Shown one piece after another: positions 11,284-19,780 of a DNA stretch of 32,000 nt. The first letter of the stretch is position 1. Every line of letters starts with the position of its first letter. A program made the translations under genes and the position numbers. The DNA comes from Acidothermus cellulolyticus 11B (GTDB taxonomy: Bacteria; Actinomycetota; Actinomycetes; Acidothermales; Acidothermaceae). The stretch covers positions 1,110,001 to 1,142,000 of the forward strand of contig NC_008578.1 of NCBI RefSeq assembly GCF_000015025.1, given 5' to 3'. Below the pieces are notes generated by a model, which was not told the DNA's origin, searched no databases, and was given only the letters and a program-made list of their open reading frames with translations.

Positions 11284-12014
11284 CTGTATCGCAGGGCACG
11301 GCGGATCGGCGTCACGAATTGGCGGCGAACCTTGCCGCGCTTCGGCGCCGGGTAATTGCGGCGTGCCGGAACGCCGGCCGTGATCCTGAAGAGATCACGG
11401 TCATTGCGGTGACGAAGACCTTCCCGGCAGCCGACATCCGGCTTCTTCACGAGCTCGGCGTCCACGACGTGGGGGAGAACCGCGATCAGGAGGCGCGGGC
11501 CAAGCGTGCCGAACTCGCCGCCGGCGGCTTCGATCCGGACCTGCTCCGCTGGCACTTCATCGGAGCGCTTCAGGTCAACAAGTGCCGGTCCGTTGCCCGG
11601 TATGCCGCGATGGTCCACTCGGTCGACCGGGCCGAGCAGTTGCCGCGGCTCGCCGCCGGAGCGCGTGAGCGCGGCCGCGTCCTGCCGTGTCTGGTCCAGG
11701 TCAACCTCGACCCGGAGGTGTCACCCGGACGGCGTGGCGTTCCGCCTGCGGATGCCCTCACGCTCGCGGACCTGCTCGCTGATACGCCCGGCCTGGAGTT
11801 GCGCGGCGTGATGGGCATCGCTCCACTCGACGGCGAGCCTGCTGCAGCGTTCGCCACGCTTGCCCAGGTGGCTCGGAAGCTTCAGGCACGGTACCCCGCT
11901 GCGACGGTGCTCTCGGCTGGCATGAGCGGCGATCTAGAGGCTGCCATCGCCGCCGGCGCGACACACGTGCGGATTGGCGCGGCGTTGCTGGGCACCCGTG
12001 TTGTGGGGGTTTGA
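11268..12014 (+). CDS. yggS: YggS/YlmE-family pyridoxal-phosphate homeostasis protein
   Basis: IAVTKTFP (PLP lysine), GENRDQEA, WHFIGALQVNK, GVMGIAP and LSAGMSGDLEAAIAAGATHVRIGAALLG are present. The start is ATG 11268 or GTG 11280 (GTGA overlap with the pgeF stop). The ORF-track start 10926 is an upstream open frame inside pgeF. Confidence 0.88.
   Translation: MVGAVTVSQGTADRRHELAANLAALRRRVIAACRNAGRDPEEITVIAVTKTFPAADIRLLHELGVHDVGENRDQEARAKRAELAAGGFDPDLLRWHFIGALQVNKCRSVARYAAMVHSVDRAEQLPRLAAGARERGRVLPCLVQVNLDPEVSPGRRGVPPADALTLADLLADTPGLELRGVMGIAPLDGEPAAAFATLAQVARKLQARYPAATVLSAGMSGDLEAAIAAGATHVRIGAALLGTRVVGV
11950..11998 (+). repeat. left copy of 49-nt imperfect direct repeat (functional 3' end of yggS)
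   Basis: ccgccggcgcgacacacGtgcggatTggcgcggcgttgctGggCAcCcg aligns without gaps to 19716-19764. By hand count, 43/49 positions are identical, and 38 of the first 40. Confidence 0.85.
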
Positions 12015-12218
12015 CTGTCGGGGAGCCAGGGTCGTTGGTCCCGAATCTCCGTAGCCCTCTGGCTCGGTTTGCCTGGGCCAAGGTCATGGATCTTTCAGAA
12101 CTGCTGCGCTGCGACTCCAAGACTGCCAAGGTGAAAGCGGTACGAGGACCAGCCGGCCAACGCCGGCCGGTCGAGCCGGAGAGCTCCGCCGTCCGGCGCG
12201 GCTGCAGAGGAGGGCACG

Positions 12219-13388
12219 GTGACGGATCGCGTCGCCTCCGCGCCGGGGTCAGTCCGCGGCGTGATGGAACCCGCGGGGCTTGATGACCTGGTTACCCTTC
12301 TGCGCGAACGGGGCTATCGAGTGATCGGCCCAACGCTACGCGACGGGGCAATCGCTTACGAGGATCTCACCAGCGCCGCGCAACTGCCTGCCGGGTGGAG
12401 CGACGAGCAGGACGGCGGCCGGTACCGGTTGCGACGGCGCCCCGACCAAGCCCGCTTTGGCTACGCTGTCGGGCCGCACTCATGGAAGCGTTTTCTCTTT
12501 CCGCCGCGGATACCACTCTGGCGTGCCCGGCGAGACCCCGAGCTCGGCCTGCGCGTCGACTCGGCCGTCGATGTGACGGGCGCGCCAGAGCAACCGCTGG
12601 CCTTTCTCGGTGTGCGCGCGTGTGAACTCCATGCCATTCAGATACAGGATCGAGTCTTTCTCGGCGGCAAGAATCCCGAACCTGACTATGCTCGCCGCCG
12701 GCAGGATCTTTTCATCGTTGCGGTGAATTGCTACGAGCCGGCGGGTACGTGCTTCTGTGCATCGATGGAGACCGGCCCGCAGGTCGAGAGCGGCTATGAC
12801 ATAGCGCTGAGCGAGATTCTCGGCTCGGAGCATCGCTTTCTCGTTGAAGCGGGCACTAAACGAGGCGCTGAAATCGTTAATCTCCTGCCACTGCGACCGG
12901 CAACCGAGGCCGATGTGTCGGCGGCACGTGAGGCGGTCGAGGCGGCGGCGGGTCGCATGGGTCGACAGCTTGACACGCGGGACCTGCCCGAACTGCTCGC
13001 CCGGAACCTTGAGCACCCTCAGTGGGACGACGTTGCGGCGCGGTGTCTCAGTTGTGGCAACTGCACGCTGGCGTGTCCGACGTGCTTCTGCTTCTCGGTG
13101 GAGGACACGACGGATCTCCTGGACGGTGCCGCGCAACGGTCACGAGTCTGGGCCAGCTGCTTCTCGCTCGAGCATTCCTACATTCACGGCGGCAGCGTCC
13201 GGGCTTCGGCAAAAGCCCGTTACCGCCAGTGGTTGACGCACAAGCTCGGTACCTGGTGGGAGCAGTTCGGCACCGCCGGTTGCGTCGGTTGCGGGCGATG
13301 CATCACCTGGTGCCCGGTCGGCATCGACATCACCGCGGAGGCAGCGGCAATTCGCGCAACGGACGGCGGCCATGATTCGCGAACTTGA
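12219..13388 (+). CDS. hyhB: 4Fe-4S dicluster protein, AsrA-like beta subunit of group-3b-type (sulfhydrogenase/Hyh) [NiFe]-hydrogenase
   Basis: Two ferredoxin-type motifs are present: [14 protein letters not shown] and [14 protein letters not shown]. An upstream Cys cluster [10 protein letters not shown] is also present. It is the first gene of the hydrogenase operon. GTG 12219 lies 5 nt after AGGAGGG. Confidence 0.75.
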
Positions 13389-13842
13389 CACTGTCCTCGC
13401 CGAGGTTCCGCTCTTCGCGGATCTGCCGGCCACCGCACGTCAGCTGCTCACCGGATGCGCGGCGAATGTCCGCTTCGCCGAAGGGGCGCAGCTCTTCCGT
13501 ACCGGGGAGCCGGCGGACAGTTTCTACGTGATCCGTCATGGCACGGTCGCTCTCGAAATGTTCCTTCCCAGTCGGGGCGCCATGACGATCGAAACTCTTG
13601 GCGCCGGCGAGGTTCTCGGCTGGTCGTGGATGTTTCGTCCGTACCGATGGCATTTCGACGCGCGCGCTCTCACCACCGTGCTCGCGCTGGGTTTCGATGC
13701 AGCATGCCTGCGCGAGAAATGCGCAGCAGACCCGAGCCTCGGTTACGCGCTCATGGAGCGGTTCGCTCAGGTACTGATTGAGCGGTTGCAGTGGACGCGA
13801 CTGCGGTTGATGGATGTGTACGGCGATGTTGACCTTCGATGA
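13372..13842 (+). CDS. stand-alone cyclic-nucleotide-binding (Crp-like effector) domain protein, no DNA-binding domain
   Basis: The 156-aa protein has a cNMP-binding beta-barrel pattern: VPLFADLP...[29 protein letters not shown]...[11 protein letters not shown]. It has no HTH region. It overlaps hyhB by 17 nt and hyhG by 17-29 nt. Confidence 0.7.
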
Positions 13843-18813: not shown

Positions 18814-19688
18814 GTGGTGATCTGTCCGTGGAAGCGTCCAGCAACCCAGGGAGGCTCGTCCGCGGCCCAGGTGATGCTGCCGGCGGACGTCACCCGGCTC
18901 GGCCGGCCGTCACCGGGCGGCGGACGCCTTTCAGCGGGCCAGGGCCGTTGCTCTTTGCCCGGTACGCGTACCCGCCGAACGCGCTCGGGCTCTGCGGTGC
19001 GGATCAGCCGCGGACGTTGCTCGAGTACGGACAGGAGCGGGCGTGCGATCCCGGATTGGCCGAGCTGGCCCGCACCTTCGAGGGCGCATGGCCGTACTTG
19101 ACTCTGATCGCTGAGTGCAACGGCCTTGCAGATCCGCTCGACAGCAGGGTGGTCAGCGCCTACTGGGTGGGCAACGAGTTGCTCTGGCGGGTGCCGCCCG
19201 TTAGTCTCGCCTCTCACGTCGCCGACCGCTTCCACGGCACGATCGGCCGGGCCGAGAAGTGGGTCTTTGACGTCATCGCGGCTGGGGCGGTACCCCACCA
19301 CTGCTTCCACGTCTTCGCTGTCTACCCCTGGATCGGGTTGCTGCGCACTGGCACCGTCGACGAGCCGCTCCGCATCCTTGATCGGTGCCGGACCGCTCCT
19401 GCGGTTGTCGTCGAGCGGAATGGGGCGCTGGTTACGGTGCGTACGCGACCGCTGCGCTGGCACGATGGACGGCTCAGTCTCGCCGAGTCGACCCTGCGGA
19501 CTGTCCGCTGGCAGGAGGCGGGTCTGGCGTTCATCGATCCTCCACAGGCAGGCGACATTATGGTGCTGCACTGGGATTTCGTATGCGATCGTGTCACTCC
19601 TCGTCAGGCCTGGACTCTTCTCCGCATTACCGAGCGGTTGCTCCGGGCGGTCAACGGTGCGGGTGTCGCCGCTGCCGCCCTCGGCTGA
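18810..19688 (+). CDS. conserved-hypothetical-type protein with HypC-like C-terminal module (possibly DUF6390-like)
   Basis: 292 aa from ATG 18810. Codon third positions are GC-rich. The N-domain carries YAYPPNALGLCGAD and HHCFHVFAVYPW. The C-terminal ~80 aa (CRTAPAVVVERNGALVTV...AGDIMVLHWDFVCDRVTPRQA) parallels HypC (MCxGxPxxV...GxWVLVHVGFA). The family assignment is from memory only. Confidence 0.55.
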   Translation: MSGDLSVEASSNPGRLVRGPGDAAGGRHPARPAVTGRRTPFSGPGPLLFARYAYPPNALGLCGADQPRTLLEYGQERACDPGLAELARTFEGAWPYLTLIAECNGLADPLDSRVVSAYWVGNELLWRVPPVSLASHVADRFHGTIGRAEKWVFDVIAAGAVPHHCFHVFAVYPWIGLLRTGTVDEPLRILDRCRTAPAVVVERNGALVTVRTRPLRWHDGRLSLAESTLRTVRWQEAGLAFIDPPQAGDIMVLHWDFVCDRVTPRQAWTLLRITERLLRAVNGAGVAAAALG

Positions 19689-19690
19689 TC

Positions 19691-19780
19691 GCTGACGTCG
19701 TCAGACCCATCCCGTCCGCCGGCGCGACACACATGCGGATAGGCGCGGCGTTGCTCGGTTCACGGCCCCGCCCTGAGTAG
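19691..19780 (+). pseudogene. orphan 3'-terminal remnant of yggS (displaced original gene end)
   Basis: The frame reads ...ADVVRPIPSAGATHMRIGAALLGSRPRPE*, against the yggS end ...GDLEAAIAAGATHVRIGAALLGTRVVGV*. There is no start codon or upstream yggS body. It begins right after the last island gene. Confidence 0.75.
19716..19764 (+). repeat. right copy of 49-nt imperfect direct repeat (inside the yggS remnant)
   Basis: ccgccggcgcgacacacAtgcggatAggcgcggcgttgctCggTTcAcg lies 7,766 bp downstream of the left copy, with 43/49 positions identical. Confidence 0.85.

Follow-up and report, generated by a model that had tools for sequence, protein, structure and literature searches.

A hydrogenase operon in the division cluster of Acidothermus cellulolyticus: a probable horizontally acquired islet with a direct-repeat footprint at yggS

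How does a hydrogenase operon come to lie in the middle of a cell division cluster? The question is raised by a stretch of 32,000 nucleotides from Acidothermus cellulolyticus 11B (NC_008578.1, positions 1,110,001 to 1,142,000; this whole stretch is called the window here, and coordinates count from its first nucleotide), in which ten co-directional genes (12219-19688) separate yggS from sepF. Pfam and NCBIfam annotation places mur and fts genes, FtsZ (about 9100-10488), PgeF (10561-11283) and YggS (11280-12014) upstream of this block, and 3' of it SepF (19846-20373), followed by YggT and DivIVA. An initial annotation, made from the sequence of the window, had described a hydrogenase block of ten co-directional genes at the yggS-sepF junction, and had proposed an entry of foreign DNA at the 3' end of yggS, by which the gene was restored and its native tail displaced to a position beside sepF. 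The domain matches agree with that gene content, and the proposed course of events is supported by empty sites in relatives, by alignment of the remnant tail, and by composition.

The normal state of the junction can be seen in 80 actinobacterial loci, one genome per species, retrieved with YggS (L001-L080). In all 80, yggS is followed directly by sepF, with a gap of 22-541 nt, and the gene order ftsZ-pgeF-yggS-sepF-...-divIVA, which had been taken as conserved, is held throughout. No protein of the block is encoded within 10 kb of yggS in any of them. The nearest relative is a metagenome-assembled genome (MAG) of a sister species, Acidothermus sp., with FtsZ 90%, YggS 75% and SepF 76% identical, and three independent assemblies of this species (L001, L088 and L089) all show an empty site; the empty sites that the initial annotation had suggested looking for are thus found in 80 of 80 species, this sister included. 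The block is present at the same site in all six contigs of the A. cellulolyticus lineage (L081, L084-L087 and L090, these being one NCBI MAG, four Logan assemblies and one JGI contig), all of them collinear with the window, to which they are 96.4-99.3% identical in nucleotide sequence. Given that the sister site is empty and that all of the lineage contigs are occupied, the insertion is older than the divergence of the strains and, on the most parsimonious view, younger than the separation from the sister species. We can therefore say with high confidence that an insertion of DNA into the yggS-sepF junction took place, and we consider it probable that the block is a lineage-specific, horizontally acquired genomic islet.

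The two ends of the islet carry the same short sequence. A repeat search identified a direct repeat of 43 nt, CCGCCGGCGCGACACACGTGCGGATTGGCGCGGCGTTGCTCGG, the copies of which (11950-11992 and 19716-19758) are identical at 40 of 43 positions and lie 7,766 nt apart. When the flanks of the islet are aligned locally with each other, the score is 35.5, compared with 11.3 +/- 1.1 (maximum 14) for shuffled sequences, which places the repeat well above chance, and the runner-up two-copy repeat families of the region reach at most 31 nt, with 70-74% identity. The repeat had originally been described as 49 nt long, with 43 of 49 positions identical and 38 of the first 40. These counts are right; however, the repeat is real over 43 nt, and the next 6 nt (3 of 6 matching) are not demonstrably homologous.

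The copy next to sepF forms part of an orphan gene end. It has no start codon and no gene body, as the initial annotation had recognized, although it does not end at ...SRP as was then thought; in frame it reads ...PSAGATHMRIGAALLGSRPRPE, with a TAG stop at 19778-19780. The tail of this remnant, GAALLGSRPRPE (SRPRPE and stop), resembles the YggS tails of Acidothermaceae, GAALLGSRPHAR (SRPHAR and stop) and GAALLGSRPQPR (SRPQPR and stop), and is closer to the family-typical YggS tail (GAALLGSRPxxx and stop) than is the tail of the functional gene itself. At the nucleotide level, the final 21 nt of the remnant match other species at 7-14 positions, compared with 3-9 positions, or about chance, for the functional tail. 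The remnant frame does therefore align to real YggS C-termini, as had been proposed, and it does so better than the functional tail. Between the remnant stop and the ATG of sepF there are 65 nt, and the empty site of the sister species has 67 nt at this place. The likeness of the tail and the spacing together indicate that the downstream copy is the displaced native end of yggS. It is worth adding that the remnant region diverges fast between strains, with about 10 differences in 124 nt compared with a regional average of 3.6%. The hairpin that had been noted after the remnant is present at 19794-19809, but its folding is no better than that of shuffled sequences (z = -1.1), and it was rejected as a structured element.

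At the opposite end of the islet, the functional YggS is 99% identical to its counterpart in the other A. cellulolyticus-lineage contigs (P0121), and it ends in a different way, with the tail TRVVGV. This retains the invariant Arg and the usual length of YggS, and the gene is the sole one among 81 to end in TGA. The sequence of the junction is CCCATSCCSTCCGCCGG. The functional gene is best described, on these comparisons, as native sequence as far as 11992, where the repeat ends, followed by 22 nt that appear to derive from the incoming DNA. The left spacer beyond it presumably holds the hyh promoter or regulatory region. For the spacer and the new tail, no homolog was found outside the A. cellulolyticus-lineage contigs, either by blastn against all of the fetched loci and the PLSDB plasmids or by an exact-pattern scan of viral contigs, the lone PLSDB match to the left-junction query covering only the coding part of yggS.

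The strains also allow the history of the repeat to be followed. In five other strain contigs the Leu codon of the left copy is CTC, as it is in the remnants, while the left copy in the window has CTG; and the strain remnants differ from one another (ATG/ATA, ATG/ATC and GTA/ATC). Taken together, these differences imply that the ancestral copies were identical at 42-43 of 43 positions. In the same comparison, the similarity between the copies ends abruptly on both sides. Judged in this way, the repeat is a true duplication, and not a pair of diverged homologues.

Two further observations concern the left part of the islet. A palindrome, GGGTCGTTGGTCCC, is found at 12029-12042, upstream of the hydrogenase operon, and is unique within the 32-kb window; we take it to resemble a DosR-type box. 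It was rejected as a conserved regulator site of the cassette, the pattern being present upstream of just 4 of 76 other cassettes (2 of them independent), and is a weak lead. Secondly, a tract of about 3 kb running from yggS to HyhG (11250-14500) is nearly invariant when compared with L084, L086 and L081, having 0-4 differences per 250 nt, with the left junction 100% identical between strains, whereas in the same length its flanks on both sides differ at 10-20 positions. The strains of A. cellulolyticus may thus have undergone a sweep, or exchanged this tract by recombination, in the recent past.

How could an insertion be tolerated at a junction that is otherwise unbroken? A possible answer is provided by the stop codon of yggS. 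When the 80 loci are aligned on this stop, it is TAA in 61 and TAG in 19, and never TGA, whereas in the same loci pgeF ends in TGA in 64 of 64 and sepF in 53 of 79. The pattern TANNNT spans the yggS stop in 79 of the 80 loci. Counting from the stop, position +5 is T in 79 of 80, +6 is C in 75 and +4 is G in 70, and the last two codons are held to NTC NGG despite varying amino acids, giving a consensus of about TCNGG-TAR-YGTC. TANNNT is an actinobacterial -10 pattern. On the remnant the motif has the form TAGGCTC, which is unchanged among the strains though nearby bases vary, and the sister species carries TAAGCTC at the same place. Scans with promoter and terminator consensus sequences gave results at the level of shuffled sequences, with nothing at the junctions. 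We propose that the TANNNT across the yggS stop is probably a -10 promoter or other regulatory element of sepF. The remnant, which had been described as a footprint, is indeed a displaced tail, but it is probably not merely a scar, since it keeps the conserved TAGGCT motif. The duplication would thus have left the reading frame of yggS intact and sepF with a promoter of its own, and the preservation of the two may be why the insertion was tolerated. In Streptomyces coelicolor, promoter probing located one promoter in the intergenic region between ylmE (yggS) and sepF, and another inside ylmE (PMC5943314); that work gives no sequence or start site for the ylmE-sepF promoter (data not shown). 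The arrangement fits a TANNNT lying across the yggS stop and kept on the remnant, the link between motif and promoter being a probable one.

The cargo of the islet is well defined. For all four structural subunits the best NCBIfam matches are the beta, gamma, delta and alpha subunits of sulfhydrogenases I and II. The best match of HyhL in the PDB is sulfhydrogenase 1 alpha, over its full length and with E = 8e-70, and the top four PDB matches (E = 8e-70 to 1e-65) are all either sulfhydrogenase 1 alpha or cytosolic NiFe-hydrogenase alpha, with Mvh, Frh and the NAD-reducing Hox scoring below sulfhydrogenase 1 alpha. Both of the nickel-binding CxxC motifs are present in HyhL, as RICGIC (the N-terminal RxCGxC) and DPCISCATH (the C-terminal DPCxxCxxH). 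By its motifs, its set of subunits and its best matches, the block is thus predicted to be a complete cassette for a group 3b (sulfhydrogenase-type), NAD(P)-linked [NiFe]-hydrogenase. Its probable role in the host is redox balancing, by a bidirectional hydrogenase linked to NAD(P). The first gene may begin further in than annotated: alignments with homologues run from residue 11-15 on, and ATG 12264 (MEPAGLDD...) is an alternative to GTG 12219, which would extend the left spacer to about 249 nt. At the other end of the cassette, no relative of DUF6390 with a solved structure was found, and we suggest that this protein may be an unrecognised hydrogenase accessory factor. In the closest cassettes, which are of Thermoleophilia type, HypA, HypC, EamA and DUF6390 consistently follow the hydrogenase core, and this extension is absent from more distant ones and from that of Rhodococcus pDK1.

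As to the source of the cassette, the best match of HyhL outside the A. cellulolyticus lineage is 75-76% identical, and matches in the interval from 76% to 97% are lacking. Where the closest HyhL clusters have named members, these are MAGs of Gaiellaceae and Solirubrobacteraceae, which belong to the class Thermoleophilia, while Acidothermus belongs to the class Actinomycetes. HyhL proteins from replicons of Streptomyces and Rhodococcus, of the same class as Acidothermus, are only 55-58% identical, and the operon of the Rhodococcus plasmid pDK1 consists of the six-gene core only. The exact ten-gene order, from Fer4_22 to DUF6390, is found in at least ten contigs from other organisms (L082, L083, L092, L094, L095, L099, L108, L121, L171 and L172), and the neighbours of the cassette differ in every one of these. 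The comparison indicates that the cassette was horizontally acquired from another bacterial class, its nearest kin being in Thermoleophilia-type genomes (Gaiellaceae and Solirubrobacteraceae).

Composition was also offered originally as a sign of foreign origin. The GC content at third codon positions (GC3) does differ, the block having 0.748 and the flanks 0.825 (Mann-Whitney p = 0.0014). Yet the adjacent division genes FtsZ, PgeF, YggS, SepF and DivIVA have GC3 values of 0.76-0.79, overlapping the range of the islet. The shift is real but is not a donor signature.

By what mechanism did the cassette enter? The one that we prefer, although tentatively and with somewhat less than even confidence, is an att-like (attachment site-like) event in which a circular molecule integrated by one crossover, its integrase having been lost or having acted in trans. 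What entered the last 65 nt of yggS, in an ancestor of A. cellulolyticus, was a self-contained ten-gene cassette. The circular intermediate would have borne an attachment segment of roughly 43 bp resembling yggS, followed by its own replacement tail, and a single exchange with yggS would have integrated it, much as integrative elements use the 3' ends of genes as targets; the recombinase gene would later have been deleted, or the enzyme would have acted in trans. In support of this proposal, we note the length of the repeat, the restored target, the displaced native end at the far junction, and a core that was originally identical or nearly so. The new tail, with its invariant Arg and canonical length, is in keeping with it. 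The description of the junctions as an attL/attR-like footprint, made in the initial annotation, therefore holds for the repeats, the rebuilt target, the displaced end and the empty site, while the att mechanism itself is unproven and has no recombinase to go with it.

Several observations weigh against such an insertion or against parts of the picture given here. The sister species could in principle owe its empty site to a deletion running exactly from repeat to repeat. Neither the islet nor the scanned open reading frames (ORFs) of the 32-kb window yielded an integrase, excisionase, transposase or relaxase, and an att-type step therefore needs a recombinase that was lost or acted in trans. 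The insert fits the cassette almost exactly, with only 204 nt to its left and 27 nt to its right, which leaves little room for a decayed mobility module. The junction sequence was not found in viral contigs or plasmids. Elsewhere, there is no nearby integrase or transposase in five annotated contexts of the cassette in other organisms, and eight full-length cassettes have no flanking direct repeats above shuffle level, so that no recurring mobile element is seen to carry the cassette. GC3 is 0.84-0.96 in the closest cassettes, above the 0.75 of the islet; low GC3 is thereby ruled out as a donor signature, and composition does not point to the Thermoleophilia-type donor clade. Finally, the promoter role of TANNNT is drawn from its conservation.

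The lack of an integrase, transposase, tRNA or inverted terminal repeats had already been remarked on, and is borne out by the domain, tRNA and repeat searches. The tRNA search of the block region found no tRNA gene, no Rfam family was matched across 11800-20000, and a search for terminal inverted repeats gave a score of 10, against 9.3 +/- 1.2 in shuffled sequences. An insertion sequence or transposon was rejected, there being no transposase and no terminal inverted repeats, and a duplication of 43 bp where 2-15 bp would be expected. Nor was any other insertion at yggS seen in the 80 species loci.

The main rival is an illegitimate, recombinase-independent insertion with a 43-bp target duplication, which we regard as possible but unlikely. 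Here a linear fragment carrying the cassette would have been caught where a double-strand break had left staggered ends in the yggS tail, or joined by template switching during replication; fill-in of the overhangs would have duplicated the 43 nt, and the new tail would be chance incoming sequence, kept by selection for its Arg and early stop. Such an event calls for neither a recombinase gene nor terminal inverted repeats, and would deliver an insert nearly equal to the cassette. It is also consistent with the cassettes elsewhere, which lack att-like repeats and nearby integrases or transposases, and with a new tail that shows no nucleotide similarity to any YggS tail (3-9 of 21, about chance). 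However, 43 bp is far longer than the usual footprints of transposases or end-joining. In addition, the occurrence of Arg at the invariant position together with a stop at the canonical length is estimated at well under 5% for unselected GC-rich sequence, although survivorship could explain it. A second insertion beside sepF (20374-21657) has no such duplication, which indicates that long duplications are not general here.

A more elaborate version is improbable. It holds that the repeat marks a recombinase-independent capture of the operon into an essential junction, by end-joining with fill-in at a wide stagger or by a mobility intrinsic to the cassette (DUF6390, for example), and adds that read-through into sepF would couple redox or hypoxia signalling, by way of the cyclic-nucleotide (cNMP)-binding regulator, to division.

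A homology-facilitated capture was also considered, in which the donor had its hyh cassette directly downstream of yggS, and a crossover within yggS was combined with an illegitimate join upstream of the native tail. The functional tail is YggS-like in form (xRxxxx and stop), and could be the end of the donor's own yggS. This reading, which is close to the capture of a donor segment comprising a yggS tail and hyh that the initial annotation had offered, is weakly refuted, and we think it very unlikely. About 80 loci with the cassette in other organisms (80 from metagenomes, retrieved with the first islet protein, plus the five contexts of the closest HyhL proteins) have no yggS, pgeF, sepF or ftsZ in their fetched flanks, so that the donor segment is unsupported and none of these hyh operons lies downstream of a yggS tail; conversely, the cassette is in none of the 80 yggS loci. 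The identity of yggS to that of the sister species is flat, at 0.65-0.80 throughout, with no drop at the 3' end upstream of the repeat, and by the same observation a chimeric yggS arising from a deep homologous crossover was rejected. Moreover, the ancestral identity of the 43-mers, 42-43 of 43, exceeds the 37 of 42 seen between the two Acidothermus yggS orthologues.

The last alternative, that the site held the cassette ancestrally and that recombination between the repeats removed it in the other species, can be dismissed as scarcely credible, because, although deletion between 43-bp direct repeats would give a perfect empty site and the composition of the islet is near that of its immediate neighbours, it demands independent precise losses in 80 other species of many orders, HyhL has no matches between 76% and 97% identity, its nearest relatives belong to another class, and the ten-gene architecture is common to those relatives and not to Actinomycetes such as Rhodococcus.

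The features on which the preferred reading, an att-like crossover into the yggS tail, is based are collected in Table 1.

Table 1. Coordinates of the islet, its junctions and the adjoining division genes, in window positions. All features are on the forward strand.
Feature	Position	Strand	Basis and remarks
yggS (YggS/YlmE pyridoxal phosphate (PLP)-binding protein), functional copy with rebuilt C-terminus	11280..12014	+	Pfam Ala_racemase_N, E = 3.8e-21
Left 43-nt repeat copy, encodes (A)AGATHVRIGAALLG	11950..11992	+	Repeat search, flank alignment
New yggS tail, TRVVGV and TGA stop, apparently from incoming DNA	11993..12014	+	5/21 nt match to remnant tail
Left spacer, 204 nt	12015..12218	+	100% identical among strains; contains the palindrome GGGTCGTTGGTCCC
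HyhB-type Fe-S subunit (sulfhydrogenase beta-like)	12219..13388	+	Pfam Fer4_22, E = 4.9e-32; best NCBIfam sulfhyd_HydB, ShyB
Small cyclic-nucleotide-binding protein, between the two diaphorase genes	13372..13842	+	Pfam cNMP_binding
HyhG-type FAD/NAD(P)-binding diaphorase subunit	13814..14665	+	Pfam NAD_binding_1, DHODB_Fe-S_bind; NCBIfam hydrogenase gamma, HydG, ShyC
HyhS, [NiFe]-hydrogenase small subunit	14662..15495	+	Pfam Oxidored_q6; NCBIfam sulfhyd_ShyD, HydD
HyhL, [NiFe]-hydrogenase large subunit, group 3b type	15485..16780	+	Pfam NiFeSe_Hases; NCBIfam ShyA, E = 7e-87
Hydrogenase maturation endopeptidase	16777..17319	+	Pfam HycI; TIGR00072 above cutoff
HypA nickel metallochaperone, short form	17301..17585	+	TIGR00100, E = 1e-10, below cutoff; called HypA in strain contigs
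HypC/HupF chaperone	17576..17863	+	Pfam HupF_HypC; TIGR00074
EamA-family transporter	17860..18813	+	Pfam EamA, E = 3.7e-24; position conserved in closest cassettes
DUF6390 protein, last cassette gene	18810..19688	+	Pfam DUF6390, E = 4e-89; also terminal gene of the cassette in other organisms
Right spacer, 27 nt, from DUF6390 stop to repeat	19689..19715	+	Sequence reading; varies between strains
Right 43-nt repeat copy	19716..19758	+	Repeat search, flank alignment; faster-evolving than left copy
Displaced native yggS 3' end (AGATHMRIGAALLGSRPRPE and stop), without start codon or gene body	19716..19780	+	Tail comparison
TAGGCTC, TANNNT(C) motif over the remnant stop, candidate sepF -10 element	19778..19784	+	Conservation across 80 loci
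Native yggS-sepF intergenic region, with hairpin 19794-19809 and sepF ribosome-binding site	19781..19845	+	Last 33 nt identical among strains
sepF	19846..20373	+	Pfam SepF, E = 7.5e-27; 76% identity to SepF of the sister species

The second insertion referred to above lies between sepF and yggT, at 20374-21657 (about 1.28 kb), and is likewise lineage-specific: it is found in the A. cellulolyticus-lineage contigs, and is absent from the sister species and from all 80 other loci. It contains a minus-strand ORF (20540-21631, 363 aa) with an apparent hydrophobic anchor segment and an internally duplicated domain, for which there is no Pfam match. No direct or inverted repeats flank it, and a mechanism common to both of the insertions was rejected for this reason. 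With an insertion on either side, sepF is flanked by foreign DNA both upstream and downstream. Further along the window, the ORF at 27274-28857 encodes a C-terminal DksA/TraR zinc finger after roughly 200 residues of Ala/Lys-rich (AKKA-type) repeats, which at the DNA level are tandem repeats of 15, 30 and 45 nt (27640-28034) that give rise to a strong AT skew (+0.49). Just downstream of the minus-strand ileS (24070-27216), at 23987-24043, there are 1.9 copies of a 30-nt unit with 92% identity.

The junction between yggS and sepF is unbroken in 80 other species, and the islet is thus a rare and cleanly resolved breach of the division cluster, for which both junctions, a sister with an empty site and a plausible donor clade are all available. 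It offers a datable case in which a complete group 3b hydrogenase cassette passed between classes, into the small genome of a thermophile, and it shows how an insertion into an essential cluster can be tolerated, with the yggS frame and the apparent sepF promoter both kept. The motif at the yggS stop is possibly more broadly useful than the islet itself, in that it gives a testable location for the sepF promoter across the sampled Actinomycetota. Current understanding is not overturned by the islet.

Comparison with known systems may begin with the enzyme. The sulfhydrogenases I and II (SH I/II) of Pyrococcus and Thermococcus, which are alpha-beta-gamma-delta heterotetramers, are related to it by the subunit matches and by the full-length alignment of HyhL to SH I alpha (9nez and 5yxy, E = 8e-70 to 1e-65). 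It differs from them in that the block adds regulatory, maturation and transport genes, and in that none of the structural subunits reaches its NCBIfam equivalog cutoff (ShyA, for example, scores 292 against 700 bits). With scores so far under the cutoffs, the Acidothermus enzyme is to be seen as a distant bacterial relative of SH I/II, and not as an orthologue. Among the Actinomycetota, Mycobacterium smegmatis Hyh is another group 3b operon. In Frankia, the group 3b synton-4 has the order hyhG/B-hupS-hupL-protease with an intercalated cNMP-binding gene, and the group 3b phylogeny departs from the species tree (PMC11879354). Frankia synton-4 and the operon of Rhodococcus pDK1 share with the islet the core order of Fe-S subunit, cNMP-binding protein, FAD/NAD subunit, small subunit, large subunit and protease. 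Unlike these operons, the Acidothermus cassette adds HypA, HypC, EamA and DUF6390, and sits in the division cluster.

As an inserted element, the islet can be compared with two types of system. Cis-mobilisable elements (CIMEs), described in streptococci, are att-flanked islands without recombination genes that are mobilised in trans by a related integrative element. The islet is similar in being an insert flanked by att-like repeats and without a recombinase of its own; it differs in that no tandem accretion is visible. We know of no cognate integrative element that has yggS as its attachment site, and a literature search found no earlier description of the islet or of yggS as an attachment site. 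The second type comprises actinobacterial integrative plasmids and mycobacteriophage-type elements, in which the attP and attB segments of identity are roughly 40-110 bp long and the 3' end of the target gene is restored. With integrative elements at gene 3' ends, the islet shares end repeats of about 43 bp, a rebuilt target, a displaced native end and empty sites. It differs in having no integrase or excisionase, in having as its target a protein-coding gene of the division and cell wall (dcw) cluster and not a tRNA, and in carrying as cargo a single metabolic operon with hardly any extra DNA. Because it does not encode a recombinase, we call it att-like and do not file it as an integrative element. 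Seen against these systems, the islet is a clean but ordinary gene transfer, a horizontally acquired operon with a direct-repeat footprint.

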